The position numbers were made by a program, and so were the translations under genes. The notes below the pieces were generated by a model. The model was not told where the DNA came from and did no database searches. It worked only from the letters and a program-made list of their open reading frames with translations. DNA of 64,000 nucleotides from an uncultured Lachnospiraceae bacterium (lineage in GTDB: Bacteria; Bacillota; Clostridia; Christensenellales; UBA1242): contig CAYSOX010000001.1 of NCBI GenBank assembly GCA_964432825.1, forward strand, positions 781-64,780, read 5' to 3'. Below are positions 44,010-64,000 of this stretch, in pieces (within the stretch, counting starts at the first letter, position 1; every line of letters starts with the position of its first letter).

Positions 44010-44657
44010 ATGATACAAAAGATAAAGATTGCCATAGCCTTATGGGGTATGGTAATAATTTTACTAGTTTCGGGATGTGGTGCGTCTGCAGAAATAACCA
44101 CACAATTAATTCCAACCGAAACCGCAAAAATTAAAAGTGAAGATTCAAAAACTTTTCCTAATGAAAATATTGGTTCAATTGAAGAAAGTGAAGATGTTGA
44201 AATAAATGAGGAAATTTCAAAAGATTTAAGATTAAAGCACAAGTTTACCATCTTTAAGTTCGTCGGAAAACGCATTAATGAGTTTTGTAAAGATGCAAAG
44301 TTTACACTATTCTTCATTAAAATTAGTACGAACGATTTAACTTCCGAATTGTTTTGCATAGATATAAAATCAAAAATTCCCTTAACTTCAGCCGATGGAG
44401 TTATCCATACCGAAACATTTTCGCCTTTAGAAAATTTTAACTATCTTGAGGGCAAATTAACAGCCGAAATAATTATAACTTTCAATTATCTTGAGGAAGC
44501 AGTCAAAATTAGCGAAAATAAACTGGTCGCAATGCTTAAAAGATTGGACGAGTCAGATTTTGTTGTAACATTTACAATAAAACTAACCCAAGATATAAGT
44601 GTTCAGATTGAATGCAATTTAACAAGCGATTTAATAGAGGGGGAGTCCGTGGTGTAA
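44010..44657 (+). CDS. lipoprotein, function unknown
   Basis: Signal peptide with lipobox LLVSGC. No other motif. Confidence 0.7.
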   Translation: MIQKIKIAIALWGMVIILLVSGCGASAEITTQLIPTETAKIKSEDSKTFPNENIGSIEESEDVEINEEISKDLRLKHKFTIFKFVGKRINEFCKDAKFTLFFIKISTNDLTSELFCIDIKSKIPLTSADGVIHTETFSPLENFNYLEGKLTAEIIITFNYLEEAVKISENKLVAMLKRLDESDFVVTFTIKLTQDISVQIECNLTSDLIEGESVV

Positions 44658-44828: not shown

Positions 44829-45701
44829 ATGAAGAAATTTTTAAGGATTTTAATAACATTTACAATTTTGTGCCTTGCTACCTTTGGTGCAATTGGTGTA
44901 CAACCAAATAAATATAAAACAACCGAGAGCACTTCAGCCGATTCACTGGTTGCAACCGTAACATTAACAGCAAACGATGTTACACGCGGTGGGGTAGATT
45001 GCAAAATAGAAATAAACAAAGATTTGGATGTTCCAAGCACGGCAATCAAGTTTGAATACCGAACAATTGAGCCCGAAGAAGAGTTGTATTCCAAGTTTAA
45101 AAAGTCTTATAAAGAACTCACAAGCCAAGCAAAAATAGGTAAAATTGTTTATCTAAAACTAAGTTGCCCCGATTATCCCGAAGTAGAAACTTATTTGCAA
45201 ACTGCAAATGTAACACTTAAAGTATATATGCCTACATTTTTGCTAAATAAAAGCACATATTTTGTAGATTTTGCATATGCTCCCGAAAGTTCGTCTGCTA
45301 GAGTTTTAAAAGACGATGTTGTGGTAGAAGATAAAAACTTTGTGGTTTACAATATGCGTATGTCCCCCGAGGGGTGTTATGTGGCACTTGTGTACGACGG
45401 TTCATTAACAATAGTAATAATTTGCATTGTAGCATTTTTAATTATACTAGCATTATGCATCTATCTAAAAATTAGAAAAATGCACAAAGAAGACCCCGAG
45501 TATTACGAAGCATTAAAGAAAGAAAAAGCCGAAAAGAAAGAAAAAGCGTTAAAAAATAGATATTACGAAGAGTCGTTGGCAGTGTCTACCAATAAAAAAT
45601 CAAAGGTCGCGGGTTCCACCCAAAAATCTTCAAAGCAAACCACTCAAAATTCAAACAAAAAGAATAAACCAACTCCAAAACAAGTAAAAAGAAAGTTTTA
45701 A
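44829..45701 (+). CDS. type I membrane protein with K-rich cytoplasmic tail, function unknown
   Basis: N-terminal signal/TM, a C-terminal TM (IVIICIVAFLIILALCIYL), then a lysine-rich tail. Promoter TTGACA-17-TATATT and RBS aaggaag lie upstream. Confidence 0.7.
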   Translation: MKKFLRILITFTILCLATFGAIGVQPNKYKTTESTSADSLVATVTLTANDVTRGGVDCKIEINKDLDVPSTAIKFEYRTIEPEEELYSKFKKSYKELTSQAKIGKIVYLKLSCPDYPEVETYLQTANVTLKVYMPTFLLNKSTYFVDFAYAPESSSARVLKDDVVVEDKNFVVYNMRMSPEGCYVALVYDGSLTIVIICIVAFLIILALCIYLKIRKMHKEDPEYYEALKKEKAEKKEKALKNRYYEESLAVSTNKKSKVAGSTQKSSKQTTQNSNKKNKPTPKQVKRKF

Positions 45702-45779
45702 TATTTTGTGTAAACCAATTTTGGATGTATAAAGATGTAATCCGGACGCACGAAAACATAAAATAAATCCTTATTTTAT

Positions 45780-45839
45780 GTCGGGGTGCAGAGGACTTTC
45801 ACCCCGACCCCGCCAAATTCTTTGGCGGGGTTTTCGTGC
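45780..45839 (+). repeat. REP-like double hairpin
   Basis: gtcggggtg..caccccgac, then ccccgccaaattctttggcgggg, then ttttcgtgc. Followed by the attccggccgttcggtttatgtgggcggaac module. Confidence 0.7.
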
Positions 45840-45942
45840 GGAGAAATTCCGGCCGTTCGGTTTATGTGGGCGGAACAGTTTTTGTATAATTTATGTGTGC
45901 AAACAACATAATAATATTGATAAAATTTGTCTGAGGTGGGGA

Positions 45943-46983
45943 ATGAAAAAAATATTTTGTGTTGTATTAAGTTTAATAATATTTTTCGGGCTTTTTGGGA
46001 TTTTATTGTTAGACAACTTGCACCAAAACAGAAATTTTTTTGCAAATTGTTATGATTGTATAACAAATTGTGTTTCTGCAAGCCAAGAAAATTACCGCAT
46101 AACTAAGGATATTGTCCGCCCCGAGTTAGATGAAATTTATAATGTTGCAAAAACAACCAAAAATTATATCGGAAATTCTTTTAATACAACCCCAAACAAT
46201 TTGCAAAAAATGTACAACCAAAAACTTTTAAACCTTGCAAACACGGGCGAAAATGATTTAATAACTAAAAATCCCGAAACGAATATTTCCGCTTCATCTA
46301 AAACAAAACCGCAAATGGCAATAGTTATTGACGATTTTGGCTATGACCGAAAAGGTGTTGAAAAAATGCTTAATCTAGATTGCACATTAACAATTGCGGT
46401 AATGCCCGCATTGGAATTTTCTGAAGCAGATGCAAAAACCGCTCACGAAAAGGGGCACGAAGTAATTTTGCATATGCCAATGGAGGCTTACGGCAATCTT
46501 CCGCTATCATGGTACGGACCCTTGTTTATAGCAAATAACGACACCCCCGAAGTCGCTTACAACAAGATAAATCAAGGAATAAACAGCATTCCTTATTGCA
46601 ATGGGGTGAATATCCATATGGGAACAGCCGTTAGTCAAAACAAAACCTTAATGCGAGAGGTATTAAAAGCCACCAAAGAACGAAATTTAATCTTTTTAGA
46701 TAGCCGAACCATAGAAAACACCGTTTGCGAGGAGGTAGGCAAGGAAGTGGAAGCACCCGTTGTGCTACGCGATGTCTTTTTAGAACACGGCGGAGCAAAT
46801 TATGGTGTTACCACCGACCGCATAACCGAAGCCATAAATCTTTGTTTAAAAAATGGCAAATGCATAGTAATTGGGCATATAGGCTCAGTCGGACGCGATA
46901 TAACTGCCGAATGCTTAAAGGCAAACTTAAACCGCATAAAGTCTGCAGGTATAGAAATTGTGCCACTTTCCGCCTTTAAGTAA
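45943..46983 (+). CDS. divergent polysaccharide deacetylase family protein (YibQ-like), membrane-anchored
   Basis: The ATG at 45943 follows gaggtgggg. N-terminal TM. AIVIDDFGYD, HEVILHMPME and GVNIHMGT motifs. The upstream part of the 45778 ORF translates a REP element and is rejected. Confidence 0.85.
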   Translation: MKKIFCVVLSLIIFFGLFGILLLDNLHQNRNFFANCYDCITNCVSASQENYRITKDIVRPELDEIYNVAKTTKNYIGNSFNTTPNNLQKMYNQKLLNLANTGENDLITKNPETNISASSKTKPQMAIVIDDFGYDRKGVEKMLNLDCTLTIAVMPALEFSEADAKTAHEKGHEVILHMPMEAYGNLPLSWYGPLFIANNDTPEVAYNKINQGINSIPYCNGVNIHMGTAVSQNKTLMREVLKATKERNLIFLDSRTIENTVCEEVGKEVEAPVVLRDVFLEHGGANYGVTTDRITEAINLCLKNGKCIVIGHIGSVGRDITAECLKANLNRIKSAGIEIVPLSAFK

Positions 46984-47124: not shown

Positions 47125-47206
47125 ACCCCAAAATTGTTTGTAAATACAAAGAAAAGGTGTATAATGCAGATATAATATAACCAAAGTGTATGGAGAGGCA
47201 TCTTCA

Positions 47207-48535
47207 GTGTTACAAAGAAAGATTGAAAAGCAAATTACCGATTATTTAACATCCAATTCTAATAAGATAATGATTATAGAGGGAGCAAGGCAGGTTGGAA
47301 AGTCTTTTATAATAAGACATATTGCAAAAAATGTATTAACAAACAAGTTCAAAAATTATATAGAAATCAATTTTGTTGAAGACGATTTGGGTGAAAAAAT
47401 ATTCAAAAATGTTAACAATAAAGACGATTTTTACTTGCAACTTAGTATGATTGCGGGTGATAGGATGGGTGATAAAAGCGATACCCTTATTTTTATTGAT
47501 GAAATTCAACAATACCCACAATTTTTAACAATGCTAAAATTTTTGAAACAAGACGACAAATTTACATATATTTGTAGTGGTTCGCTTTTAGGTGTTACCC
47601 TTGCAAAAACTACTTCTATTCCAATTGGAAGTATAGATATTGTAAAGATGTACCCGCTAGATTTCGAAGAGTTTTTGCTAGCAAATGGTTTCAATAATTT
47701 TGCAATTGAAACAATGAGAACTAAGTTCCTAAATTTTGAAGCATTGGATGAATCCGTACATGCCAAGGTTATTGATATGTTTAAAAAATATCTTTTAATA
47801 GGCGGTTTGCCAGATGCGGTAAATAGTTTTATAGAAAGAAAAAACATTGCCGAAGTTCGAAAAATTCAATCGGATATTTGCGATTATTACGGCGACGACG
47901 CCTCAAAGTATGATATTCAGCAAAAATTAAAAATCAAACGCATTTACGACTTAATTCCTTCAACACTTGAAAATAAGAAAAAACGCATTGTAATTCAAGA
48001 TATTGAAAATATAAAAGGCAAAAGGGTAGGTTCTTACCAAGACGAGTTTGACTATTTAATCAATTCAGGTATCGCCCTAGAGGTTAAAGCCCTATCTACT
48101 CCAATATTTCCGCTGATTGAATCAAGTGGCAAAAACTTGCTAAAACTATATCTTAACGATGTAGGACTACTCACAAACATCCTGTATAAAACCAATATAA
48201 ATGCAATTTTAAAAGACGAAAACAGCATAAATTTAGGCACTTTATATGAATCTGTTGTGGCGAGCGAACTAAAAGCCCATGGTCACAAGTTGTTTTATTA
48301 TGACAATAAAGCCAATGGTGAGGTGGATTTTTTGATTGACGACTATCAAAATTTGTCAGTGTTACCAATCGAGGTAAAGTCGGGTAAAAATTATACCGTG
48401 CATAGTGCTATCAATAAATTTTTAGCAAACAAAGATTACAATGTAAAAAATGGGGTAGTCCTTTCCAACGAACGCAAAGTGTTTGAAAAAGAGGGAATTA
48501 AATATATGCCAATATATTACATAATGTTTTTCTAA
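47207..48535 (+). CDS. AAA-type ATPase with DUF4143-like C-terminal region
   Basis: Walker A GARQVGKSF and Walker B LIFIDEIQ. The GTG at 47207 lies 8 nt after ggagagg; the ORF opens at 47186. Confidence 0.8.
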   Translation: MLQRKIEKQITDYLTSNSNKIMIIEGARQVGKSFIIRHIAKNVLTNKFKNYIEINFVEDDLGEKIFKNVNNKDDFYLQLSMIAGDRMGDKSDTLIFIDEIQQYPQFLTMLKFLKQDDKFTYICSGSLLGVTLAKTTSIPIGSIDIVKMYPLDFEEFLLANGFNNFAIETMRTKFLNFEALDESVHAKVIDMFKKYLLIGGLPDAVNSFIERKNIAEVRKIQSDICDYYGDDASKYDIQQKLKIKRIYDLIPSTLENKKKRIVIQDIENIKGKRVGSYQDEFDYLINSGIALEVKALSTPIFPLIESSGKNLLKLYLNDVGLLTNILYKTNINAILKDENSINLGTLYESVVASELKAHGHKLFYYDNKANGEVDFLIDDYQNLSVLPIEVKSGKNYTVHSAINKFLANKDYNVKNGVVLSNERKVFEKEGIKYMPIYYIMFF

Positions 48536-48627: not shown

Positions 48628-48823
48628 GAATGGGTGATATTTCATAATTTCCCCGATAAATGTAAAATGTACAAATGCACCACAAATAAATTTGTGATGC
48701 ACGGGTCGGATAGTATCCGTCCCGCACACCCGCCACAAAATGTGGCGGGTGTCTTCGTGCTAATTATAATCTTCGTACCAATTATAATGAAAGAACATTA
48801 AAACTTTGCGGGTGTCTTCGTAC
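48628..48823 (+). repeat. ~200-bp dispersed repeat, copy R1 (partner at 58758-58966)
   Basis: gatatttcataatttccccgataaatgtaaaatgtacaaa ... cgtcccgcacacccgccacaaaatgtggcgggtgtcttcgtgctaattataatcttcgtaccaattataatgaaagaa ... gcgggtgtcttcgt. Near-identical blocks occur in R2 in the same order and orientation. Confidence 0.85.
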
Positions 48824-48857
48824 ATTTAATATTTTATATAAAACACAACCAATTTTA

Positions 48858-49068
48858 AACAACCCTAATATAGCATCCAACCCCAGTAAGTTTATCCGGC
48901 TTAGGTGGGAGGAACATTCTTGTAGGGGACGGGTAGTACCCGTCCCGCACACCCGCCACAAAATGTGGCGGGTGTCTTTGTGCGAATAATAAAAGGATAA
49001 TTAATGTTTAACAACCCCAATACAGCATTCAACCCCAGTAAGTTTATCCGGCTTAGGTGGGTGGAACA
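48858..49068 (+). repeat. two 60-nt direct copies (48858-48917, 49009-49068) flanking a REP double hairpin (48920-48982)
   Basis: aacaacccYaataYagcatYcaaccccagtaagtttatccggcttaggtgggWggaacatt occurs twice. Between the copies lies tgtaggggacgggtagtacccgtcccgcacacccgccacaaaatgtggcgggtgtctttgtgc. Confidence 0.85.
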
Positions 49069-49247: not shown

Positions 49248-50063
49248 ATGATGGGTTTTCAGACTAAAATAATAACATGCTTTCTATCAATATTGGGTTG
49301 TGTCAGTGTTATGACAACCGGTGTTGTCGCTATATTATATCAAAATGACTTGCTTTTAATGAATAGTGAAACTATTGAAATGCAAGCCACATCAGGTAAA
49401 CTATATGTAATGCGTTTTGGGGCGGGATATTACGATATCTATGATAAAGAAAATTCCACAACCAAAAAACAACAGCCTTTGCTTCTTTTTGATGATAGCG
49501 AACTAGTTGACCAATCATTATATAATGACTTCTTATCAAATGTCACTTTCGCCCCTCAAACCGAACAAAGTTCTGAGCGTAAAATAGAGTACCTCTTTAA
49601 ATACGAACTTAATATGCTAAGTGAGGAAATTATTTATATAGCATTGGTAAATGAAAAACTCAACCAAATAAATGCTATAACTCGGGAAGACTTAGGAACT
49701 CCTTCCAAAATGTATCAAGCATCTTACCGCTTTGCATTCACCGAAGATGAGCCCGATAGTTGGTCAGACAATACTTCAATGGTATTATCTGAATATGATT
49801 TGTCCAATAAGGATAACTTCATCACCCTAGACCCCGAAGAAAATCCCGTCGTGTGGATTCGTTGTTCCCTCACACCAAAACAAAATTATGGTATAGAAAC
49901 AAGTTCAAATACTAATACTAGTGATGATGGAGCCACTTGGAAAGATGAAACTTCCGATTCAAGAGAATTCAATTCAAGCGTTTGGTCATTCACTCTTTAT
50001 TTCGGTAATGAACTCCAAACTCTAGACCAAAAGTTAACTTCCGAACAAAGCCCTAGCAATTAA
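49248..50063 (+). CDS. secreted/anchored hypothetical protein (271 aa) with TasA/SipW-type-looking signal region
   Basis: N-terminal hydrophobic segment ending ..VMTTGVVAILYQND. Extended -10 tgtataat at 49177-49184. No enzymatic motif. Confidence 0.7.
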   Translation: MMGFQTKIITCFLSILGCVSVMTTGVVAILYQNDLLLMNSETIEMQATSGKLYVMRFGAGYYDIYDKENSTTKKQQPLLLFDDSELVDQSLYNDFLSNVTFAPQTEQSSERKIEYLFKYELNMLSEEIIYIALVNEKLNQINAITREDLGTPSKMYQASYRFAFTEDEPDSWSDNTSMVLSEYDLSNKDNFITLDPEENPVVWIRCSLTPKQNYGIETSSNTNTSDDGATWKDETSDSREFNSSVWSFTLYFGNELQTLDQKLTSEQSPSN

Positions 50064-50225
50064 CTTTAGTAGCAACTATTGTTCACATTAATCTCGGTAA
50101 CAAATGTTAAATTTTACTTAAAACCTATCTTGGGCGAAGAGGATAGGGTATACAAAAGAAAATTAAACATTAGGTTACATAAATTAAAATCAAAAAAATT
50201 AAAAATTTTAATAAGGAGAAAAAAA

Positions 50226-51542
50226 ATGAAATTAAAAAGCAAACTAATTGCGACTATCGTATCTATGTGTGCAGCAATCGCAGTTATGGGTGTTGGTGTT
50301 TGGGCTTCTACAGCACAAAGTTTCTCTTTGACAGTTAACAATGACGTAGATGTTAAAATTATCGGTGTAAACGCGGATATTTATGGTGAATTTGCTGTTT
50401 ATAGCCAATTTACAGGTCACACTACAGCTAGTGAAACTAATACATTTGCTGCAAAGTATGGTGCAACTGCAGTTGATGGTTATACTTCTCGTGAAGGATA
50501 TGACCATGGTTATCTTTTGTATGCTCAGAACATCGGTGTTAACGATGGTAAGAGAAATACTTATGATCCAACAACTGGAACATACGGCGGAAATGATTCG
50601 GAAGGTGCGGCTTTAGGCTATGGATATGATAAGTACATTAATGAAACTAAGAACAATGTTTATTTAGCAAGTTCTAATGGAACATTAGTAAATAATAATA
50701 CTAGCCCAGAAGGAACTCAAAACCTTCGTACTGGTACAGGCACACAATCTTATGACAATATCTACAATGTTGACTTTACAACACACCAAGCCCAAGTTAC
50801 ATATTTGTATACAATTAATCAATGGGCTGAAACATCTGGAAATAACGCTATTTATACAGATATTTCAATTAATTTAAGTAGTGATTTAATTGATGCAATA
50901 AATGGAACTGTGAAAAATGGTGCAAATGCACAATTTAGACCTTATGTTTATGTTGGTAAAGTTGGTGAAGGTTGGTATCAACAAAATATGACGGTTGCTA
51001 ACAATGTAGCAACTACTAAGTTCGAAATTCCTTCAGACGCTGAAAATGATCAAGTATACTATGTATTATTGACATTTACATTTGCAAGAAACAATGCAAA
51101 CTTGGATTTGAGTTCTTTAAGAGATGCATTAAATCACTCTATTGAATTCAAGGCAGAGGTTTCTGAGACTTATAATTCATACAAAGCAGCTGGTCAAGGT
51201 TCAAGCGTTTATATGTACACAGCAAATGCTAATGATACAGCCCAAAATGGTGGTTGTAAAATTACTGGAGAGTCATGGAACATTGATGCTTCCAAAACAA
51301 CCGATATCTCAACTCAAATTTCTGGAGTTGCATATAATGATGCAAGATTAAAGAATTGTTTTGCTTTAGAAACCGAAGATACAACAACATCGCATTTGCC
51401 AAATGGTTTCCTTTATACTGGAACTAGCGCAGAAGATTCAACACCTCACGCAAGCGCATGGACTTGGCTAATTGACCTTAACCAAGGTAAGAGAACTGCT
51501 TCATTTGGAAATGGTTTCGATACGACTGGCAATGGGGATTAG
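50226..51542 (+). CDS. secreted T/N/G/Y-rich protein (438 aa) with TasA/SipW-type-looking signal peptide
   Basis: The ATG at 50226 follows aaggag. MKLKSKLIATIVSMCAAIAVMGVGVWASTAQSF resembles the TasA signal ..LALVGGGTWAAFND. By eye, codon usage is ggt/gct/act/aac-rich, like rpoA and rplQ. Confidence 0.8.
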   Translation: MKLKSKLIATIVSMCAAIAVMGVGVWASTAQSFSLTVNNDVDVKIIGVNADIYGEFAVYSQFTGHTTASETNTFAAKYGATAVDGYTSREGYDHGYLLYAQNIGVNDGKRNTYDPTTGTYGGNDSEGAALGYGYDKYINETKNNVYLASSNGTLVNNNTSPEGTQNLRTGTGTQSYDNIYNVDFTTHQAQVTYLYTINQWAETSGNNAIYTDISINLSSDLIDAINGTVKNGANAQFRPYVYVGKVGEGWYQQNMTVANNVATTKFEIPSDAENDQVYYVLLTFTFARNNANLDLSSLRDALNHSIEFKAEVSETYNSYKAAGQGSSVYMYTANANDTAQNGGCKITGESWNIDASKTTDISTQISGVAYNDARLKNCFALETEDTTTSHLPNGFLYTGTSAEDSTPHASAWTWLIDLNQGKRTASFGNGFDTTGNGD

Positions 51543-51690
51543 TTTAAAGGTTATTAACTTGTTCTAAACAAGTATAAAAATTAGAAAATCAAACAAACAG
51601 GTGGCGGGGAATAGAGGATAAATCCTCAAATTCCCCAACCTCTGTTCTAAATTATAATTTAGAATAGTTCAAAAACTATTAAATCAATTA

Positions 51691-51730
51691 AAAACCTATA
51701 CTTTCGTTCGCCCGAAAGTATAGGTTTTTA
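51691..51730 (+). terminator. intrinsic terminator downstream of the 50226 gene
   Basis: aaaacctatactttcg / cgaaagtataggtttt 16-bp stem followed by ta-tata. Confidence 0.75.
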
Positions 51731-51991: not shown

Positions 51992-52100
51992 ACAACCCTG
52001 TTCGCCCGTTGATGTTTTTTAATGTGTAACTTTATTGTAACAATTGCCCAAATTACAGGTTTAACCCCCGTGGGCGAACTGTCGATAAAATTCGATATTT

Positions 52101-52159
52101 TGTAGGGGACGGATTCTATCCGTCCCGTGTATCAAAACAAAGTTTTGATGTCTTTGTGC
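52101..52159 (+). repeat. REP-like double hairpin (GTAG head)
   Basis: tgtaggggacggattctatccgtccc, then atcaaaacaaagttttgat, then gtctttgtgc. Confidence 0.75.
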
Positions 52160-52199
52160 ATTTAATATATTTTATTATCTTATTATATATTTGTAATTC

Positions 52200-52263
52200 G
52201 TACAAAGACACCCGCCAAAATATATGGCGGGCGTGCGGGTCGGGTAGTACCCGACCCCTACAT
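52200..52263 (-). repeat. REP-like double hairpin, inverted partner of 52101-52159 (BIME-like pair)
   Basis: The reverse complement reads tgtaggggtcgggtactacccgacccgcacgcccgccatatattttggcgggtgtctttgtac. Confidence 0.75.
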
Positions 52264-52623: not shown

Positions 52624-53913
52624 ATGTTAGTAAATTTCAGATTTCAAAATTGTCGTTCGTTTTATAATGAAAACCAATTGAGTTTACAGGCGACAAATGA
52701 TGACGAGTTAAAGGATATTAACACATTTGAGATTTCTCCAACCTTATTTAATAAAAACGAGAACAATCATTTGTTAAAAAGTTCTGTAATTTTTGGGTGC
52801 AATGCGTCTGGTAAATCAAATGTAATTAAGGCTTTATCTTATATGTATAATGCTGTTAGATTATCTTCTGCGATGAATATAATTGAAACCAATAATTATT
52901 TTTTATTCTATGATGAATCATATAATAAAGAATCGTTGTATGAGGTAGAGATTATACAAAATGGTGTTTTGTATACATATGGTTTTACAATTTTACAGCA
53001 AAAAGTGCAAAAAGAGTGGTTATATAAAAGAGTTGAGCGGAATTCAAAGGTGTTTGAAAGGAATGGTAATAAAGTTGAAATTTCTGGCAATAAAGCAGCG
53101 GTTTCATTGATAAGAGTTCCGGATAGTGCCTTGTTTTTATCAATTGGTATGAATTTTAACCTTACAATTGCATCAAATTTAAAAGATGTTTTGGATTGGT
53201 TTAATAATTTAATTATTGTTTTTGAAGATAGGATAAATATATTGGATATTTATTCTGTTGATAACAAAAAATATAAACATTTAGCACTTGAAATATTAAA
53301 GAAAGCAGATATTGGCGTAACTGATATGAATGTAGTAAAAGATAAAGTTGCGGATTTAAAATCATTAAATGATGTTCTAAATTTTAATGTTTCATTGCAA
53401 ACAAACAAGAGAAGATTTGGACAACTTAAGCAAGAAGACCAAAATATGTATAATATAGACCTTGATACTAGTTTTAATGTTTATAATAACAGAAACGAAA
53501 AGGTGAGGGATTTTGATGTTTTGTTATACAGGGATGCGGGGTTTCATTCTGAGGGAACAATAAGGCTGGTAAATTATTTGGGGCTTATTTTGGCTGCTCT
53601 TGATACGGGTAGGGTGATTTTGATGGATGAAATTGATTCAAAATTACATTTCTTAGTAGTAGATTATTTATTAAAGATGTTTAATTCTATTGACAAAAAT
53701 CCACATAACGCACAACTTGTTTGCACTGCACATAATTGTTTGCTTATGGATGAGGATTTAAGGCGTGATCAAATATATTTCACAAGTAAAGATTCTGTTG
53801 GTGTAAGCACATTAGTTTCGCTTTCGGATTTTAATGGTGTGCGAAAGAATGATTTGTTTAGCAAAAAGTATTTGGCGGGGTTTTATTCTATGCTCCCAGA
53901 ATTCGATAATTAA
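52624..53913 (+). CDS. AAA15/AAA21-type ATPase, AbiLi-like (OLD-family ATPase module without nuclease)
   Basis: MLVNFRFQNCRSF start, Walker A GCNASGKSN, Walker B ILMDEIDSKLH and CTAHN. RBS gagagggaaaacgg. Confidence 0.85.
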   Translation: MLVNFRFQNCRSFYNENQLSLQATNDDELKDINTFEISPTLFNKNENNHLLKSSVIFGCNASGKSNVIKALSYMYNAVRLSSAMNIIETNNYFLFYDESYNKESLYEVEIIQNGVLYTYGFTILQQKVQKEWLYKRVERNSKVFERNGNKVEISGNKAAVSLIRVPDSALFLSIGMNFNLTIASNLKDVLDWFNNLIIVFEDRINILDIYSVDNKKYKHLALEILKKADIGVTDMNVVKDKVADLKSLNDVLNFNVSLQTNKRRFGQLKQEDQNMYNIDLDTSFNVYNNRNEKVRDFDVLLYRDAGFHSEGTIRLVNYLGLILAALDTGRVILMDEIDSKLHFLVVDYLLKMFNSIDKNPHNAQLVCTAHNCLLMDEDLRRDQIYFTSKDSVGVSTLVSLSDFNGVRKNDLFSKKYLAGFYSMLPEFDN

Positions 53914-53921
53914 GGAGGGGT

Positions 53922-54548
53922 ATGGCTAGGAGACAAGAGTTTTTAAAGGTAAGAGATGTTTTTTATATTTTAACCAATGGTGAATGTTCGGAAATGAATT
54001 ATTTCGAGTTGATTAAGTCTAGAAAGAGTATATATGATGTTAAAGTGAAATATCTCAATGCAGACCCAGTTGGCTTGGTGAAATTTGCTATTGGCTTGGC
54101 GAAAGATGTGAACCAGGTTTGGTGTGTTTTTGACATAGATAATACTTTCAATGATAATAGGCTTATTTCTGCCATAAATTTGGCAAAGTCAGAACACAAT
54201 ATACATTTAGCTTTTTCGAATACGGCATTCGAAGTTTGGTTGTTGTCGCACTTTCATAAAATAACTAAACCTTTAAACAATAACGAGTTAATAGAAGAAA
54301 TGAATAGTTTATTAAAGAATGAGTTGAATTTACATTGTAAGTATAATAAAGGTGATAAAAATCTAATTAAAAAGTATTTTATACCACAAATTGATAAAGC
54401 GTTGTTAAATACTAAGGTTGGATATCAAAAATTTGTAAAAGAACATTATGAACAATATCCACAAAACGATAATTACCAAATTTGGGAATGGAATCCTTGT
54501 TCAAATATCTTTATGTTAATAGAGGCATTAAAACTGCAAAAAAGATAA
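53922..54548 (+). CDS. RloB-like protein, AbiLii-like
   Basis: ILTNGECSEMNYF, VWCVFDID and LAFSNTAFEVWLLSHF match the RloB pattern. Starts 8 nt after the ATPase stop, with RBS aggagggg. Confidence 0.85.
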   Translation: MARRQEFLKVRDVFYILTNGECSEMNYFELIKSRKSIYDVKVKYLNADPVGLVKFAIGLAKDVNQVWCVFDIDNTFNDNRLISAINLAKSEHNIHLAFSNTAFEVWLLSHFHKITKPLNNNELIEEMNSLLKNELNLHCKYNKGDKNLIKKYFIPQIDKALLNTKVGYQKFVKEHYEQYPQNDNYQIWEWNPCSNIFMLIEALKLQKR

Positions 54549-55249: not shown

Positions 55250-57910
55250 ATGAGCAAACCAAGGAATAAGAAGAATAGGGAGTCGGAGTATTCAACCCGT
55301 TGGCTTGAAATACTTGACACCGTTACAAACATTATCATTATTCCGATTTTGGTGTTAAGTGTAATATGTTCTATTGTTATGATTAACGCCAAAAGGAGTA
55401 ACAATGTGCCAAACTTGTTTGGCTATTCTTTGGTTACCATTCTTTCCGGAAGTATGGAAAATTCAGGCTTTTATGAAGATGATACGGTAATAGTTAAGGA
55501 TATTGACACTTCAGAAATTGAAGTCGGCGATATCATAGCATATTACACATATATAGAAACATATTCGGATATAAAGCAGGCGGCACAAACAGCCTCTGCA
55601 CAAGAAAAAACCGAAATAACTGAGGCTAGTTATTTAAAAGATGGGGGCAAGGTTCCTCCAGATAAAAGCACGGTTTCATCGTGGAAATTGCAGTTAAATA
55701 AGATTTTTGCAAACCTTACATACACGGCAACAGATGCAAGTGAGCGTGCGATTCGTGCAAACAAAAAGATTACCTTCCACCAAGTCGTTGATGTTATTGA
55801 TTACCAAAATTCTAGGTGGTTTAAAACATGGGGAACCTCAAACCTAGATAGTCACGGCAACCCAAATTATGACTCTTATTGGATTAAAGAAGATTATATT
55901 ATCGGTGTTTACACTAATACTAGTTTGGTAGTTAGAAGTTTCTTAGGCTTTGCAAGTACCAATACGGGTATTATTTGGATGGTCGAAGTTCCAAGTGGTG
56001 TGCAACTTATTCTTTCCACACTAGAACTTATTGAAATTATTGATATGATGGGCAGAGTTAAGCACGACCAAATTAAAAACGGAACATATGTAGACCGTTC
56101 GGCGTACAGGCAAATGCTTAGAGAGAGGCGAAAACTTTTAGCCTCAGGTAATATTGATGTGGACACCTATAGAAGGTTTTATCCACCTTACGAAAATTAC
56201 GACATCAAAAATAATAACAGGGATATTCTTAAAACTTCAATTACGGCTAATGGTCCCCCAATGTTCCAAGATGCATCGGGTGCTTATGCACAGTCTCTCG
56301 GACGGGGACAGCCAAACGATTTGACTTACGGCAGAAATGGTCCACCTTGGAGTGATACCGGTGGTGGTACACCTCGAAACGGTCCACCTTGGAGTGATTC
56401 AGGGGGCGGAGGCCCAGCGAGAAACGGTCCACCATGGACTGACTCAGGAGGCGGAGGCCCAGCAAGAAATGGTCCACCTTGGAGCGATACCGGTGGTGGT
56501 ACACCTCGAAACGGTCCACCATGGACTGACTCAGGGGGCGGAGGCCCAGCGAGAAACGGTCCACCTTGGAGCGATTCAGGTGGCGGAGGCCCAGCAAGAA
56601 ATGGTCCACCTTGGAGCGATACCGGTGGTGGTACACCTCGAAACGGTCCACCATGGACTGACTCAGGGGGCGGAGGCCCAGCGAGAAACGGTCCACCTTG
56701 GAGCGATTCAGGTGGCGGAGGCCCAGCACGAAATGGCCCATCAAAAGCGTATAAACAATCGTTTGATAAACTAGATGGCGAGAGGACTAAAAAACTCTTA
56801 AATTCTAGACCTAATCAAGTTATAAATGAGTTGGAATCTGAAGATGAACTTACACTATTTGCAAAAATAGTTAGGTCGCTGAAAACTAAGCTTGCAAAAA
56901 CCGTTAATAGATTTGCAGTAAGACTTGGTATAAACGAAGTTCTGTTAACTTCAGCCGAAATTAATGAACTTGAAGATATGTATAATTGGGTAGGGTTCTG
57001 CTTTGTATCAAAGGCAAGAATCTCAAGGAAGGGTTATGTTGTAGAGCCTTCCCGTAAAAACCGCATATTCCTTATCGATAAGAGGACAATGAAACAATAT
57101 TCACTAGAGCCACTTGGCACTGTTTATGGCGTTTCATGTGGTCTAATCACTAGCGAAAAGGGTCTATTCAAACCAATTGCAAGACCTGAGGGAGTTGTGT
57201 TTGAACGAATTGAAATTGACTCTAAATACACGGTCGTTAAAACAATGCAAGACACATTCGGCAACGTCTACATTGGTATCACAAACGGCCCTGAAGAAGA
57301 GGAAGTTAAATACACTTCAGACGGCAAACGAGTAAGCTTGTGGAACAGAAATGCTTTACTTGCTCTCGGCAACGACAACAGATTGTATTTTGTTACAATG
57401 GACGACAGTTTCAATATTGAAAAAGGCAAGATTACCGATCTTAAAGTAATTAACAAAGAAGGTTCTCTGGTGGCTGTTATGCCAACCGAAAACACTAAAC
57501 TGGTTCGCTTTAAAGATGGTTATGATAGATATGGATTTGTTTATTATGATGGTAACTTCTTATGCCTCGATAATGGTAATAAGTACTTTAATATTAGGAC
57601 GAAGGAAACATATTCGTTGCCAATTAATTGTTGGCAGTTATCCGAAGACCAGTTAGCGATTGCACTTAACGACGGAAATCTTTACAAAGTAAAGGTACAA
57701 GATGTCTTGAATGTATTCGCGAGTGGGGAGGGTGTAAATTCAATCCAAGAAAAACAATTGCTTTTAAAGAATGTCTCTCGGGCAAACATTAGAGGTGATA
57801 GTTTAGAGTTTACATCTACAGATGGAGATAATCGATTTGTTGCTCCTTTAACGGAGGAGTTCCTCGCGCGGGCTCGTGTAAAACTTGGAGTCGACCAAAG
57901 CACTGAGTAA
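55250..57910 (+). CDS. SipW/ER-type signal peptidase I fused to GPPW repeats and a ~390-aa unknown C-terminal domain
   Basis: TM1, Ser box TILSGSME, GDIIAY, His box ITFHQVV, KTWGTSN and a second TM FLGFASTNTGIIWMVEVPSGV parallel B. subtilis SipW. Nine RNGPPW[ST]D[ST]GGG units and a motif-less beta-rich region follow. RBS taggagac. Confidence 0.8.
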   Translation: MSKPRNKKNRESEYSTRWLEILDTVTNIIIIPILVLSVICSIVMINAKRSNNVPNLFGYSLVTILSGSMENSGFYEDDTVIVKDIDTSEIEVGDIIAYYTYIETYSDIKQAAQTASAQEKTEITEASYLKDGGKVPPDKSTVSSWKLQLNKIFANLTYTATDASERAIRANKKITFHQVVDVIDYQNSRWFKTWGTSNLDSHGNPNYDSYWIKEDYIIGVYTNTSLVVRSFLGFASTNTGIIWMVEVPSGVQLILSTLELIEIIDMMGRVKHDQIKNGTYVDRSAYRQMLRERRKLLASGNIDVDTYRRFYPPYENYDIKNNNRDILKTSITANGPPMFQDASGAYAQSLGRGQPNDLTYGRNGPPWSDTGGGTPRNGPPWSDSGGGGPARNGPPWTDSGGGGPARNGPPWSDTGGGTPRNGPPWTDSGGGGPARNGPPWSDSGGGGPARNGPPWSDTGGGTPRNGPPWTDSGGGGPARNGPPWSDSGGGGPARNGPSKAYKQSFDKLDGERTKKLLNSRPNQVINELESEDELTLFAKIVRSLKTKLAKTVNRFAVRLGINEVLLTSAEINELEDMYNWVGFCFVSKARISRKGYVVEPSRKNRIFLIDKRTMKQYSLEPLGTVYGVSCGLITSEKGLFKPIARPEGVVFERIEIDSKYTVVKTMQDTFGNVYIGITNGPEEEEVKYTSDGKRVSLWNRNALLALGNDNRLYFVTMDDSFNIEKGKITDLKVINKEGSLVAVMPTENTKLVRFKDGYDRYGFVYYDGNFLCLDNGNKYFNIRTKETYSLPINCWQLSEDQLAIALNDGNLYKVKVQDVLNVFASGEGVNSIQEKQLLLKNVSRANIRGDSLEFTSTDGDNRFVAPLTEEFLARARVKLGVDQSTE
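56333..56728 (+). repeat. coding tandem array: nine 42/45-nt units, including a perfect 132-bp tandem duplication
   Basis: Unit order is A B C A C B A C B (A=RNGPPWSDTGGGTP, B=RNGPPWSDSGGGGPA, C=RNGPPWTDSGGGGPA). 56465-56596 and 56597-56728 read identically. Confidence 0.95.
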
Positions 57911-58757: not shown

Positions 58758-58966
58758 TGAGGATATTTCGTAATTTCCCCGATAAATGTAAAATGTACAA
58801 AGGCACCTTTAACTACCATAATTTTGCATTTACGCGAATTTGTGCGGGACGGGTAGTACTCGTCCCGCACACCCGCCACATTTTGTGGCGGGAGTCTTCG
58901 TGCTAATTATAAACTTCGTACCAATTATAATGAAAGAATATCAAAACTTGGCGGGAGTCTTCGTGC
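58758..58966 (+). repeat. ~200-bp dispersed repeat, copy R2 (partner at 48628-48823), containing a REP double hairpin at 58841-58903
   Basis: gatatttcgtaatttccccgataaatgtaaaatgtacaaa ... gggacgggtagtactcgtcccgcacacccgccacattttgtggcgggagtcttcgtgctaattataaacttcgtaccaattataatgaaagaa ... gcgggagtcttcgtgc. Confidence 0.85.
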
Positions 58967-60051: not shown

Positions 60052-61764
60052 TTATTTGATTGGATTTTCACTCTCGTTGAAACCAAAAGTCTTTTCAATC
60101 CCCTGAGTGGTTCGGTTTTGTTGTTTATATTTGTCAATATCTAAGTTTAAGGTGCTAATGCATAAACCTAAGATAACCATAAAGAATGGGTAGGTATGAG
60201 GCATTGTGTTTCCAAAAAATGCACTAATTGCATAACACATAACGCAAAATAACAGACATATAGATAGGTTAGAAATATGTTTAAAGTACTTAATTCCCTT
60301 AACTGCAATTATTACAAGCCCTGAAATATATAAAACTGCCGATAAAATTCCTGAATGTGCCGCAAATTGCAAATACTCATTGTGTGGCTTAACAATCATT
60401 TCGCCATCGCCAAAGATTGGATATTTTGAAATCTGTTCAAAAGCATCCAGCCAAAGTTCCCAGCGGTTTGTTCCTGCTTTTTTTGTTTCTTCAGCAAGTG
60501 GTGCACTAGATACTTTAAAGAAGTCTTTAAACACACCAGAAATTTGCATGTATAAACTTGAATAAGTTGAGTCCATTGGGCGGGCTAGAGGAATGCATAT
60601 AAAACTGATTGCCGTTAACATAATTAGTGGTGTAAAACTCAAAATATCAAATTTTCTGTTCTTTATACTAATTATGATAGGTAGTAAACAAAAGCCAAAG
60701 AATAGTGCAAGATTGCTACCGAGAGTATCATTAAACATCGCTACAAACAAGTGTAGGGCAAGTACTATGCCAAACATAATACGGGTTTTTAACTGTTTTG
60801 AAAGGCAAAAGCATACAGCAATTAAACTTGTTGCCAGACATAATACATAACCGAAGTGGTTGCTGTTTACAAATGCATATGCCCAGTTGGTGTTGTTTGA
60901 AAAAGATACGGCAAGTTCGGAGTGGTGGAAAAATAATGTTAACACACACATTATTGAGGTGGATGCTAAAAATACACCTAGAAGATGCTCTTTAACTGGT
61001 CGGTCTTTAAGTGTTATTGTAGATATTAATATTGCCAAGTAAACTACAAAATATAAAACACATTCTTGCAAATATGTACCATTGTCATAATCTAAGAAAA
61101 ACTTAAAGTTTGTAGGGAAATTGTTTGTAAAAAAACTTGTAAAAATCATCCATAAAAAACTAGTAATCAAAAGAAAACATTCTAAGCGGTTTTTAAAAAT
61201 ATGCTTTGTAAAAACTTTAAATGGTTTCCATTCTTTTTTAATGATGTAGTAAATATCAAATGGTAAAAAGCAACACAAAAATACCGCTGCGGTCAATATT
61301 ATAGGTAAATAGTTCATATGGAAAGGCCAAGGTGGGCTCGAAAAAATCAAATCAAACAAAGTCACTAAAACGCCCGAAATTAAAGGCATTAAAACTATAA
61401 GGTAGGGTAAAACAACGGAAGTTTTTGATTGGTTTTCGCTTCTTAAATCTTTAAAAATATCAAATTTCTTTTTATCGCTTTGTGTGTCAAGAAATTTAGG
61501 TGAGACATCTTCTAAATTTTCATCCGTCAATTCGGTAGTCTTTTTAGTTTCGGTCGAAATTTCAGAAGGTGTTGCGTTTTTAATTTCTTCGTCCTCTAAA
61601 GTTTCTATTTCAGAAATAGAACTTGTAGAACTAACATTGTGTGAGTTCTTTGTTTTTCGCCTAGTTTTATGTGGGGTAGAGGCAGAGTTGTTTAATTGGT
61701 CGATTGAAGTTGGTAAATTTTTAGAATCAACTTCGGGTTTAATTTCGTTGTTTTTTGTATTCAT
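60052..61764 (-). CDS. O-antigen ligase/polymerase-family (Wzy_C-like) membrane protein with ~110-aa hydrophilic N-terminus
   Basis: About 11 TM segments. VNSNHFGYVL and ..KPHNEYLQFAAHSGILSAV.. match the O-antigen ligase family pattern. Confidence 0.75.
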   Translation of the reverse strand: MNTKNNEIKPEVDSKNLPTSIDQLNNSASTPHKTRRKTKNSHNVSSTSSISEIETLEDEEIKNATPSEISTETKKTTELTDENLEDVSPKFLDTQSDKKKFDIFKDLRSENQSKTSVVLPYLIVLMPLISGVLVTLFDLIFSSPPWPFHMNYLPIILTAAVFLCCFLPFDIYYIIKKEWKPFKVFTKHIFKNRLECFLLITSFLWMIFTSFFTNNFPTNFKFFLDYDNGTYLQECVLYFVVYLAILISTITLKDRPVKEHLLGVFLASTSIMCVLTLFFHHSELAVSFSNNTNWAYAFVNSNHFGYVLCLATSLIAVCFCLSKQLKTRIMFGIVLALHLFVAMFNDTLGSNLALFFGFCLLPIIISIKNRKFDILSFTPLIMLTAISFICIPLARPMDSTYSSLYMQISGVFKDFFKVSSAPLAEETKKAGTNRWELWLDAFEQISKYPIFGDGEMIVKPHNEYLQFAAHSGILSAVLYISGLVIIAVKGIKYFKHISNLSICLLFCVMCYAISAFFGNTMPHTYPFFMVILGLCISTLNLDIDKYKQQNRTTQGIEKTFGFNESENPIK

Positions 61765-61868: not shown

Positions 61869-63275
61869 TTAGGTTAATACATTTTGGTCGGTTATAATTA
61901 TTCCACCAGTTTTAATAGTTTTTTGCATTTTATGTTTTGCAATATCCACATTTAAAAATCGGTAAAAAATGCCTAAAACCATTAAAAATAAACAACCTAT
62001 GTGAGGCATAATACTTATAAATAGTGCGGTAAAAAGGTGCGAAACACAAACACCCGCCAAAATTAATGTTAGCCTACTCAAATGTTTAATATTTGTGAAA
62101 AATTTAACAAATACTATTATAACGGATATTAATAACATTGTCAAACAAGGGATGCCCCAAATTTCAGCAATTTGTAAAATAAATGAATGCGGGTTTGTGT
62201 AGGTGTCACCATTTCCAAAAATAGGATTTTTTAACACATTGTTGAAACTTTGTTTAAAAATTTTAAATCTGCCCGTTCCTGCATTTTCTGAAAGAGTGGA
62301 GTTAGGGTTTTTAAATATTTCATTAATTTCAATAAAAAGGTTTTTAATTTCTTTAAAAAAGCCAATGTATTTACTGTAAAAATCGCTTGCAAGCAGTTCT
62401 ACGGCAAAAGATAGTCCAAGAAAAATTACCAAGGGCAAGATTGCAAAAGGATTAAATCTTTTGCTATAAAAATGCGAAATAATTGCAAGCAAAATTAGTG
62501 CTAAACACACACCCAACATACTAGAAAAGGTATTAGTTAAGGAGAGTACCACACAGTGTAGGCAAAATGCCAAAATGCTAGAAATTTTAATAAGTTTATT
62601 GCGTCTAAAAATGAACAAACCTGCAAGTATAATGGTGGGAATGGTGAGATATAAACCAAAGTTATTTGAATTGTTAAATATGCTACTCCAAACATCATTG
62701 CTCGGGTTATGAATTTTAAAGGTGCACCTCGGGTCAATCAAGATAAGCACGCAAAGGATTGTTGATGTTATGGCGATTGAAAATATAATATGTTCGGCTA
62801 TGTTCCGGTTTTTTAGACCAAACCCGAATACAAAACACATACCCACAAGCAGTATTATAGGAAATCCAAGCCCGATGCCAAAAGGACTTAAAACACTTGT
62901 GGTAAAACCGTTTTGTGCGGGACAAGAAATTGCTTGAACAATAGACGATGCCAATATCAAAATCAAACAAAGTCCTAGAGGTATAATTTCGAAATATCTT
63001 TTTAAAAATTCGGAAAAACTAAAACGAAATCTTCGTTTGCCAAAAAATATTCCTAAAATGTCAATCAATATAAAGAGAACGGGGAACAATATAAGTAGGT
63101 AAATATATTGAGAATAAAGGTTTAAAAAGTCGTGTTTAGCATCGGAAAATATTCCGACAATCAAACTTAAGATTATTGTAATTATTGGCAAAAAGGATAA
63201 AATGTAGCAAATCCAAATTGAAGATTTTGCCTCGTTTTTGATGGACTTATAATTGATAAATAGTTGATTTTTCAT
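61869..63275 (-). CDS. O-antigen ligase/polymerase-family (Wzy_C-like) membrane protein, paralogue of 60052-61764
   Basis: NNSNNFGLYL and ..NPHSFILQIAEIWGIP.. motifs. The ATG at 63275 lies just after the uppP stop; the longer ORF to 63320 overlaps uppP and is rejected. Confidence 0.75.
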   Translation of the reverse strand: MKNQLFINYKSIKNEAKSSIWICYILSFLPIITIILSLIVGIFSDAKHDFLNLYSQYIYLLILFPVLFILIDILGIFFGKRRFRFSFSEFLKRYFEIIPLGLCLILILASSIVQAISCPAQNGFTTSVLSPFGIGLGFPIILLVGMCFVFGFGLKNRNIAEHIIFSIAITSTILCVLILIDPRCTFKIHNPSNDVWSSIFNNSNNFGLYLTIPTIILAGLFIFRRNKLIKISSILAFCLHCVVLSLTNTFSSMLGVCLALILLAIISHFYSKRFNPFAILPLVIFLGLSFAVELLASDFYSKYIGFFKEIKNLFIEINEIFKNPNSTLSENAGTGRFKIFKQSFNNVLKNPIFGNGDTYTNPHSFILQIAEIWGIPCLTMLLISVIIVFVKFFTNIKHLSRLTLILAGVCVSHLFTALFISIMPHIGCLFLMVLGIFYRFLNVDIAKHKMQKTIKTGGIIITDQNVLT

Positions 63276-63279
63276 AAAA

Positions 63280-64000
63280 TTACCAAATTGGATAAATAAA
63301 ATTTTGGATAAAACACACAAAAGATAGGATTGTCAAATATAAACTAAACCACTTAAAATTGCACTTACCAATTACTTTAATCATTAGTTTAATCGCCAAA
63401 AGCCCAGAAATTAATGAAGAAATAAATCCCAAAACTAGTGCAAGCCAATTAATTGAAACAAGTTCAACTTTAAATAGTTCTAAAATCAGCGAGCCTAAAA
63501 TTATTGGAATACTCATAAAAAAACTAAATTTGGCAATTGTGTCAGGTTGTTTTTTTGTAATAATTCCACCGAAAATTGTAGACCCACTACGACTTATTCC
63601 GGGTGTTAGGGCAACGCATTGAAACAACCCCATAACCAAGGCTGAACGGCTGTTAAACTCGCTTTTTAAAGCATACTTTTTGTTAAGTCTTTCGCCTAAA
63701 ATTAAGATTATTGCGGTAAACAAAAAGGTGAATGCCAGCAATTTCGAACCCGTCGCGTTTTCAAATAAATCACCAAGTGTAAAGCCTACAATAACAGCGG
63801 GAAGGGTGGCAATTATAAGCCACCAAATTGTTTTGTGGTTTTCAGGTTTTAGAAGTGAGACTAAGTCTTTAAAATAGTAAATTACAACAGAAACCAATGT
63901 TCCAAGATGTAGTATTATGGTGACAAATAAGGTATTTTCTGTAAGCCCGAAAATTTCTTGCAAAAGCAATAAGTGTCCACTGCTTGAAACGGGTAAAAAT
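63280..64000 (-). CDS. uppP: undecaprenyl-diphosphate phosphatase, 5' end outside window
   Basis: The window edge encodes ..FLPVSSSGHLLLLQEIFGL... GISRSGSTI motif. Multi-TM protein. Confidence 0.9.
   Translation of the reverse strand, partial: FLPVSSSGHLLLLQEIFGLTENTLFVTIILHLGTLVSVVIYYFKDLVSLLKPENHKTIWWLIIATLPAVIVGFTLGDLFENATGSKLLAFTFLFTAIILILGERLNKKYALKSEFNSRSALVMGLFQCVALTPGISRSGSTIFGGIITKKQPDTIAKFSFFMSIPIILGSLILELFKVELVSINWLALVLGFISSLISGLLAIKLMIKVIGKCNFKWFSLYLTILSFVCFIQNFIYPIW

Follow-up and report, generated by a model that had tools for sequence, protein, structure and literature searches.

The window analysed here is a 64,000-nucleotide stretch from an uncultured Lachnospiraceae bacterium (assembly GCA_964432825.1, contig CAYSOX010000001.1, positions 781 to 64,780 of the forward strand), and our subject is a pair of adjacent genes in it, here called A and B, together with the SipW-type signal peptidase gene that lies beyond them (table 1). 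Judged by gene order in related genomes, these three are one conserved module, limited to a narrow lineage among the uncultured Clostridia of the human gut, and on profile evidence A and B are distant paralogues within a superfamily that lacks annotation and whose members are secreted beta-sandwich (jellyroll-like) proteins; all of the evidence is computational. The original prediction for this locus had pictured A and B as substrates of the peptidase, in a diverged and interrupted form of the Bacillus subtilis tapA-sipW-tasA fibre module. Both open reading frames (ORFs) lie where it placed them and begin as it quoted, A with MMGFQTKIITCFLSILGCVSVMTTGVVAILYQND and B with MKLKSKLIATIVSMCAAIAVMGVGVWASTAQSF; the ATG of B is nested in a longer ORF that begins with a TTG at 50079.

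Table 1. Features of the A-B-peptidase locus and their positions in the window
Feature	Positions	Strand	Remarks
Gene A	49248-50063	+	271 aa; ORF with Shine-Dalgarno site
Leader of A, MMGFQTKIITCFLSILGCVSVMTTGVVA	49248-49331	+	predicted cleavage after VVA
Gene B	50226-51542	+	438 aa from ATG behind TAAGGAG Shine-Dalgarno site
Leader of B, MKLKSKLIATIVSMCAAIAVMGVGVWA	50226-50306	+	predicted cleavage after VWA
First mature strand of B, STAQSFSLTVNNDVDVKII	50307-50363	+	conserved; candidate donor/assembly strand
Terminator-like hairpin	51689-51730	.	18-bp stem; about 150 nt beyond B stop
SipW-type (S26B) signal peptidase fusion	55250-57910	+	886 aa; proposed processing enzyme
Divergent polysaccharide deacetylase (PF04748)	45778-46983	+	Pfam 8.4e-58
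AAA_14/DUF4143 ATPase	47186-48535	+	PADLOC candidate defence family PDC-S01, 1.6e-173; between deacetylase and A
REP-like GC-rich hairpin element, two direct copies	48697-49001 (48697-48769, 48921-49001)	+	upstream of A
REP-like element, inverted copies	52100-52263 (52100-52137, 52182-52263)	-	downstream of B
AbiLi + AbiLii defence pair	52624-54548	+	PADLOC 8e-77, 2e-17; Pfam AAA_21 + RloB

The kinship of A and B emerged by profile methods only; a direct BLASTP comparison of the two finds no similarity. A search with the single sequence finds six relatives of A, and a profile raises the number to 32; B has about 45 full-length homologues (30–96% identity), none of which carries a name, and every one comes from gut metagenomes or metagenome-assembled genomes of uncultured Clostridia; in some relatives the place of B is held by a shorter protein, which we call short-B. 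The A profile matches the short-B profile over 208 columns, the full length of A (hhalign probability 97.9%, E 5.5e-13), and long B over its first 125 or so columns (90.7%, E 1.2e-6), and short-B matches B at 99.7% in an alignment limited to the first 51 columns (about 51 shared residues). A merged A plus short-B profile, run against 1.84 billion representative sequences, gathers 211 clusters, 111 of them at E <=1e-10, and recovers the long-B proteins (P0033, profile positions 1–227, E 3e-16); in a local run it aligns with the window's B over columns 1–211 at 62 bits. The relationship of A to B that the original prediction had glimpsed in two pairs of short patterns is thus borne out by hhalign and by the merged profile search, and one of the pairs with it: KIEYLFKYELN and QVTYLYTINQW fall in the same profile columns and are therefore probably homologous, but WSFTLYFG and LLTFTFA do not pair, since LLTFTFA of B aligns with the VWIRCSL strand of A.

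Neither protein has a Pfam, NCBIfam or PDB relative by sequence search, searches of those databases with family profiles and remote members assigned no family, and a literature search found no published description of the A/B family (a weak PDB sequence match of A, 6bmt, E 0.006, carries no reading here). The earlier description of both as beta-rich and free of enzymatic motifs agrees with the Pfam and NCBIfam results and with confident AlphaFold2 models, which are beta-rich for A (predicted local distance difference test score, pLDDT, 74.6; predicted template modelling score, pTM, 0.73) and for B (pLDDT 78.5, pTM 0.83). In B a domain like that of A, enlarged by sizeable insertions, spans about residues 1–315, and a C-terminal extension follows it. 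The positions kept in at least 90% of the A and short-B sequences include G24, A27, N38, Y114 and W245-x-F (A leader residues are numbered from the second Met). G24 and A27, both in the leader, are invariant in the A family, G24 again so in the 33-sequence alignment A5; alignment A4, of 11 A-family sequences, shows no variation at N38. This near-invariant Asn lies at +11/+12 from the predicted cleavage site, in a post-leader strand that is common to B, the short-B family and A.

The leaders of A and B are both 27 residues long and share, with the same spacing, a K-rich start, a long hydrophobic core and an end of the form S-x6-V-M-x-x-G-[VI]-x-A; the mature proteins are predicted to start with ILYQNDLLLMNSETIEMQATSGK in A and STAQSFSLTVNNDVDVK in B. 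In a six-frame scan of the whole window, a regular expression for the shared leader matches A and B only. In the A family the consensus MGFQTKIIxCFLSMLGCVSVMTTGVVA is conserved, and the B-slot leader, MKLKSKLIATIVS[MI]CAAIAVMGVGVWA, is near-invariant in 42 long-B and 27 short-B proteins, with 99% pairwise identity in the leader of the short-B family against 27% in the remainder. Between the window's B and that of locus L001 all 27 leader residues are identical in proteins that are 47% identical overall (A is 55% identical between these two loci, the peptidase 80–92% and UvrA 88%). Remote superfamily members, with 10–25% identity and including multidomain ones, retain the same leader and strand. 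A sister leader, MKKxVKLxTTIASLCLAVALMAFGVYA/AT (slash at the predicted cut), is found in remote members of about 200 aa; these resemble the Enterococcus sortase-dependent surface proteins of NF053819 (EF2685/EF0750) weakly, over the leader and first strand only (44–55 residues, at most 19.8 bits against a cut-off of 47), and we dropped that lead. If A and B are cleaved by the peptidase, their leaders (..AVMGVGVWA and ..SVMTTGVVA) would be a further, undescribed SipW-linked leader class.

The A leader contains a Cys, and A was considered as a bacterial lipoprotein. We rejected this, because the lipobox [LVI][ASTVI][GAS]C expected at the end of the hydrophobic region is unconserved across its family: the window's A has ILGC where other members have MLSC, IVAC or MVAC, the Cys is shifted (AMVCS) in still others, and hydrophobic residues run on beyond the Cys. 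AlphaFold2 renders the leader as a low-confidence helix (residues 3–31) and the post-leader strand of A (residues 31–40) likewise at low confidence (pLDDT 52). We take A to be a beta-sandwich protein that is either secreted or tethered to the membrane, and to be the minor, conserved one of the two paralogues.

We examined 11 related loci (about 10 of them independent) by context look-up and tblastn; their UvrA proteins are 71–89% identical to the window's. Where there is enough sequence the order is constant: the PF04748 deacetylase, A, the B-slot gene and the SipW fusion, with A and B in identical orientation in all loci. The original prediction had suggested checking whether the three genes are contiguous in relatives, and they are so in L003, L004, L006, L008, L009/L010, L011 and L025. 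The peptidase stands directly downstream of the B slot in every locus with sequence there, an optional AbiL insert aside, and the deacetylase directly 5' of A in every relative that reaches far enough upstream. A search that started from the peptidase returned 5 GTDB species representatives only, and wherever upstream sequence exists the peptidase is immediately preceded by A and B; L025 (UMGS1908), its sole new locus, has an A-like gene, short-B and the peptidase in a row. A and B are therefore, across genomes, encoded beside a signal peptidase of the S26B or endoplasmic-reticulum (ER) type. Against this constancy the B slot itself varies, with proteins of 240–297, 397–551 or 690 aa in relatives (240–260 aa in L009–L011 and L025).

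The peptidase fusion is, as had been noted, the only SipW-type peptidase in the window, beginning 3.7 kb past the stop codon of B with REP-like repeats and the AbiLi/AbiLii pair between. Its N-terminal part matches NCBIfam SipW (NF046067) partially (E 1.4e-12, 47.6 bits, equivalog cut-off 190), the SipW-like stretch being the first 100 or so residues plus a second block, and BLASTP against B. subtilis SipW likewise gives two blocks, one with LSGSME and one with FHQ. All 7 orthologues keep the Ser-Met nucleophile motif (LSGSME/LSESM) and the His (F-H-Q) without change. The second hydrophobic segment is followed by basic residues, a Pro/Gly-rich region of about 9 tandem NGPPW[ST]D[ST]GGG..R repeats (56333–56740), whose copy number varies among relatives, and a C-terminal domain of about 360 aa; from the topology of SipW this extension would be cytoplasmic. 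The C-terminal domain contains one WD40-like blade motif; its WD40-like PDB matches were set aside, because this single motif of 30 residues matches repeat proteins many times and so inflates the E-values. Long ORFs in other frames, at 56247–56744 (minus strand) and 56337–56774 (plus strand), arise from the tandem repeat and do not represent genes.

The reading that we favour, and hold to be modestly probable, is that a dedicated SipW-type peptidase and its substrates A and B make up an assembling surface module whose substrate family differs from the known ones or has diverged beyond recognition. The two precursors would pass through Sec and remain tied to the membrane by their long leader, the dedicated ER-type peptidase would trim the leader off both, and the freed N-terminal strand may then drive assembly at the cell surface. 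B would be the abundant, fast-evolving and strain-variable main subunit and A a conserved minor partner, perhaps an initiator or anchor, in the role that TapA has beside TasA and BsaB beside BsaA. By analogy, operation like tapA-sipW-tasA or sipW-bsaAB is the best-supported reading of the module. In B. subtilis SipW cleaves TapA and TasA, TasA polymerises via its post-cleavage residues 28–38, and the N-terminus of TapA resembles that of TasA (PMC9674648); the export and polymerisation of Clostridium perfringens BsaA require SipW (PMC7395162), and paralogues of the BsaA/TasA family often share operons with signal peptidases (PMC11580942). The present locus resembles tapA-sipW-tasA (PDB 8AUR, 5OF1) in having an ER-type SipW encoded with two secreted, beta-rich putative substrates, one major and one minor partner with similar predicted post-cleavage N-termini, a 27-residue leader ending small-x-W-A in register with that of TasA, and, by model, a fold of the jellyroll-type sandwich class. 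It differs in its gene order (A-B-peptidase), in the C-terminal extension of about 600 aa and the catalytic-domain insertion of the peptidase, in the hypervariable size and sequence of its major-subunit slot, and in mature domains with no detectable sequence or Foldseek similarity to those of that system. With the sipW-bsaA-bsaB-bsaC locus of C. perfringens (PMC7395162, PMC11580942) it shares a clostridial SipW module, paralogous putative matrix proteins and an Asn-bearing N-terminal segment, which BsaA uses for strand exchange, and in the published model the BsaA subunit is proposed to be anchored in the membrane by its leader until cleavage, as we propose for A and B; a vWA (BsaC-like) gene is absent here, and A and B were compared with BsaA by description only. 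Donor-strand filaments are also known from the archaea, another domain of life (AbpA bundling pili, threads and cannulae; PMC9245690, PMC9715654), and no fold or sequence match to these was recovered for A or B.

A number of findings count against this reading, and each is given here with the alternative on which it bears. The V-x-A site equally suits ordinary signal peptidase I (SPase I) and its general -3/-1 rule, and the SipW-cognate signal model TIGR04088 gives no match for the A, B or short-B N-termini (E up to 10, at which HMMER filters may mask very weak matches), whereas TasA, the positive control, scores 41.4 bits against a cut-off of 19. The leader classes of TIGR04088 (cognate_SipW) and TIGR04089 (alternate-type signal) embody the same concept, a leader tied to a SipW-type peptidase, but neither model recognises that of A and B. 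Some family members, moreover, lie away from any peptidase gene (P0144). A and B might then be ordinary Sec/SPase I proteins that share an envelope neighbourhood with SipW, the leader being kept as a recombination anchor or by a constraint on translation initiation. The leader DNA fits such an anchor beside a swapped cassette, in that it is 98.8% identical to that of L001 with synonymous sites conserved too. Among more distant loci, however, it is the amino-acid sequence that is kept: the 81-nt B leader DNA is 84–99% identical between the window and its relatives (uvrA 70–78%), and the codon differences comprise 46 synonymous and 4 non-synonymous changes. Nor does the idea sit well with the same leader in members of only 10–25% identity or with the peptidase synteny in every locus, and, as an internal control, the ordinary signal peptide of the neighbouring gene p290 has changed without such restraint in the same pair of genomes (p290 is 51% identical overall). 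We regard this alternative as quite unlikely.

Whether A and B belong to the TasA/camelysin family is a separate matter. The TasA sequence, verified against PDB 8AUR, has the leader end that the original prediction gave for the B. subtilis protein (GGGTWA/AFND, with the mature chain beginning at A28), and the B leader aligns in register with TasA residues 1–28, W26-A27 being present in both. Beyond that no similarity was found. A and B match neither Peptidase_M73 (PF12389) nor the TasA hidden Markov model (HMM) NF046066, which a control N-terminal fragment of TasA matches at 2.5e-34; Peptidase_M73 is also absent among the families listed for 27 short-B and 49 remote members; and the three family profiles align with TasA by hhalign over the leader only (1–28/32) or not at all, at 10–14% probability. 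When the models of A and B were compared by Foldseek with the PDB, which includes 8AUR, 5OF1 and 5OF2, TasA stayed outside the top 50; the best matches (Eph ligand-binding domain, carbohydrate-binding modules, pilins) are generic jellyroll or sandwich folds with query TM-scores of at most 0.24, and a comparison of B with a viral library likewise gave generic beta-sandwich matches of low TM-score. Because TIGR04088, Peptidase_M73 and profile comparison all fail to make the link, and Foldseek adds none, TasA/camelysin membership is unsupported; of the proposed diverged, interrupted TasA/TapA/SipW module the synteny upholds the interrupted module and these comparisons do not uphold the family name. 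Common ancestry in the form of a true, extremely diverged membership of the BsaA/TasA superfamily would account for the same operon logic, the in-register leader and the jellyroll-like models. Since the BsaA/TasA family had itself to be assembled with iterative HMMs, and 632 of its 2172 members match IPR022121 (PMC11580942), we allow such remote ancestry some probability, while considering it on the whole unlikely given that HMM, profile-profile and Foldseek comparisons all give no TasA link. A BsaA-type isopeptide lock was also considered. The Asn is conserved (at least 90%), but none of the columns that are invariant or at >=90% in the mature region holds a Lys, a Glu or an Asp (short-B alignment A2; 33-sequence alignment A5), and we reject a BsaA-like triad because the conserved Lys or acid partner is missing; in this A and B are unlike BsaA, with its Lys and Glu partners for the Asn-Lys isopeptide bond.

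The remaining difficulties concern the peptidase and the fate of B. In all 7 orthologues GDN is replaced by GTS and an insertion of about 70 aa separates the two catalytic blocks, so the peptidase activity is putative only; and in the monomer model of B the N-terminal strand (34–46) packs in cis. The mature domain of B, first strand included, also occurs behind a lipoprotein signal (LSTAC) in proteins P0043–P0049, which are 30–33% identical to it; this gene stands alone in other Clostridia, where it adjoins yabP, yabQ, divIC and spoIIE (L012, 8001–9281, and L013). The domain is thus able to work as a tethered monomer. These points can be read as describing a strain-variable, non-filamentous coat, in which B would be monomeric or form an S-layer-like lattice under diversifying selection, A would be an uncleaved signal anchor tethering it, the peptidase would be optional and the Wzy_C proteins may glycosylate B. 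A hypervariable B slot between conserved leader and flanking genes would be expected of such a coat; the hydrophobic stretch of 24 residues at the N-terminus of A, a helix in the model, would suit an anchor; and the cis-folded strand, the absent isopeptide partners, the superfamily members with adhesin-type C-terminal domains (LRR_5, DUF285, DUF6273, Flg_new) and the neighbouring Wzy_C, BacA and glycosyltransferase genes agree with it as well. It leaves unexplained, however, why an Asn-bearing post-leader strand is conserved in both paralogues and why every locus has a dedicated ER-type peptidase next door, and Pfam and NCBIfam scans find no SLH, CWB2, LPXTG or other anchoring domain. We think a coat of this kind rather improbable, and the assembling module served by its own peptidase remains the reading that we prefer.

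The larger members of the superfamily (P0114–P0181, 388–2850 aa) have the same leader and an A-like N-terminal domain. In ten of them, scanned with Pfam, the C-terminal domains are DUF6273, DUF285, BspA-type LRR_5, Flg_new and Hint; no LPXTG was seen in A, in B, in the members inspected or in the displayed C-terminal ends of multidomain members.

The supposition that B is highly expressed, from its ribosomal-protein-like codons, finds partial agreement in the counts. GGT, GCT, ACT and ATC are raised in B (fractions 0.57, 0.35, 0.43 and 0.27, against about 0.35, 0.15, 0.2 and 0.1 in most window genes), which places its usage of these codons nearer to that of rpoA and rplQ (111–1253) than to that of most genes of the window; the C-ending two-fold codons (0.28) and CGT (0.25), by contrast, are not enriched. 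Upstream of B, conserved motifs can be seen in an alignment of the relatives (A9; window 50085–50115 and about 50170–50240): TCGGTAACAAATG about 125 nt and GTTACATAAA about 40 nt 5' of the gene, plus the Shine-Dalgarno site AAGGAGAAAAA, which is strong and kept in relatives. Because these motifs are conserved, they suggest that B has a promoter or regulatory site of its own, separate from A.

In the window the module has been split by insertions of defence genes. Only the window, L001, L002 and L005 have the AbiL pair in the space separating B from the peptidase; it is absent there in L003, L004, L006, L008, L011 and L025, where A, B and the peptidase are contiguous; we therefore take the cassette to be an insertion here. 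In L009/L010 a pair of AAA_21 genes with slight similarity to it (24% identity, outside the PADLOC scan) is found downstream of the peptidase. The PDC-S01 gene occupies the window's position in no related locus, and L003 alone has a copy, on the opposite strand beyond the peptidase. With two defence-type insertions within the module, the variable surface locus doubles as a small landing site for defence genes. The REP-like (repetitive extragenic palindromic) element is made of two hairpins, GGGACGGGTAGTACCCGTCCC and CACCCGCCACAAAATGTGGCGGGTG, and all copies that the two hairpin queries find in the window cluster around the A/B locus. Two of its arms form an inverted repeat (I1) of 81 nt, 83% complementary, which flanks A and B with its arms 3180 nt apart, as would be seen if the pair were an invertible or mobile cassette; yet no recombinase gene is adjacent, the genes keep one orientation throughout the related loci, the upstream regions of A and B lie within the segment and a further copy at 58846–58894 places the element outside the flanks as well, and such a cassette seems to us very improbable indeed.

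Beyond the module two Wzy_C (O-antigen-ligase-like) membrane proteins are encoded just downstream on the minus strand (60052–61764 and 61869–63320), in relatives (L009, L011) accompanied by BacA and by glycosyltransferases of type GT4; they may have a part in adding sugars to the Ser/Thr-rich surface proteins or to a wall polymer. The stretch from uvrA to the deacetylase holds a lipoprotein gene (..LLVSGCGAS, 44010–44657) and p290 (44829–45701), whose product has a signal, a C-terminal transmembrane segment and a Lys-rich tail; p290 evolves fast, and most relatives have it close to the locus, several of them on the other strand.

Bacillus (TasA/TapA) and C. perfringens (BsaA/BsaB) already furnish examples of a signal peptidase devoted to cognate matrix or fibre substrates. 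What is new here is a putative substrate family that the databases leave unnamed (211 clusters, some of them adhesin fusions) with its own leader class, and a hypervariable main-subunit slot beside defence-gene insertions. One may go further, tentatively and with some doubt, and picture a SipW-dependent, pilus-like surface-fibre system in gut Clostridia whose subunit superfamily would have no kinship with TasA or have diverged from it beyond recognition, in which A would prime assembly, the B slot would be swapped between strains like an antigenic cassette and adhesin-type members (LRR_5, DUF285, DUF6273, Flg_new) would be incorporated or displayed via the same strand. The analysis yields concrete predicted cleavage sites for A and B. 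If the proposed module is real, its leaders would provide a new class by which SipW substrates can be annotated, and B would be a candidate for the dominant strain-specific surface antigen, or a phage receptor, of this lineage.

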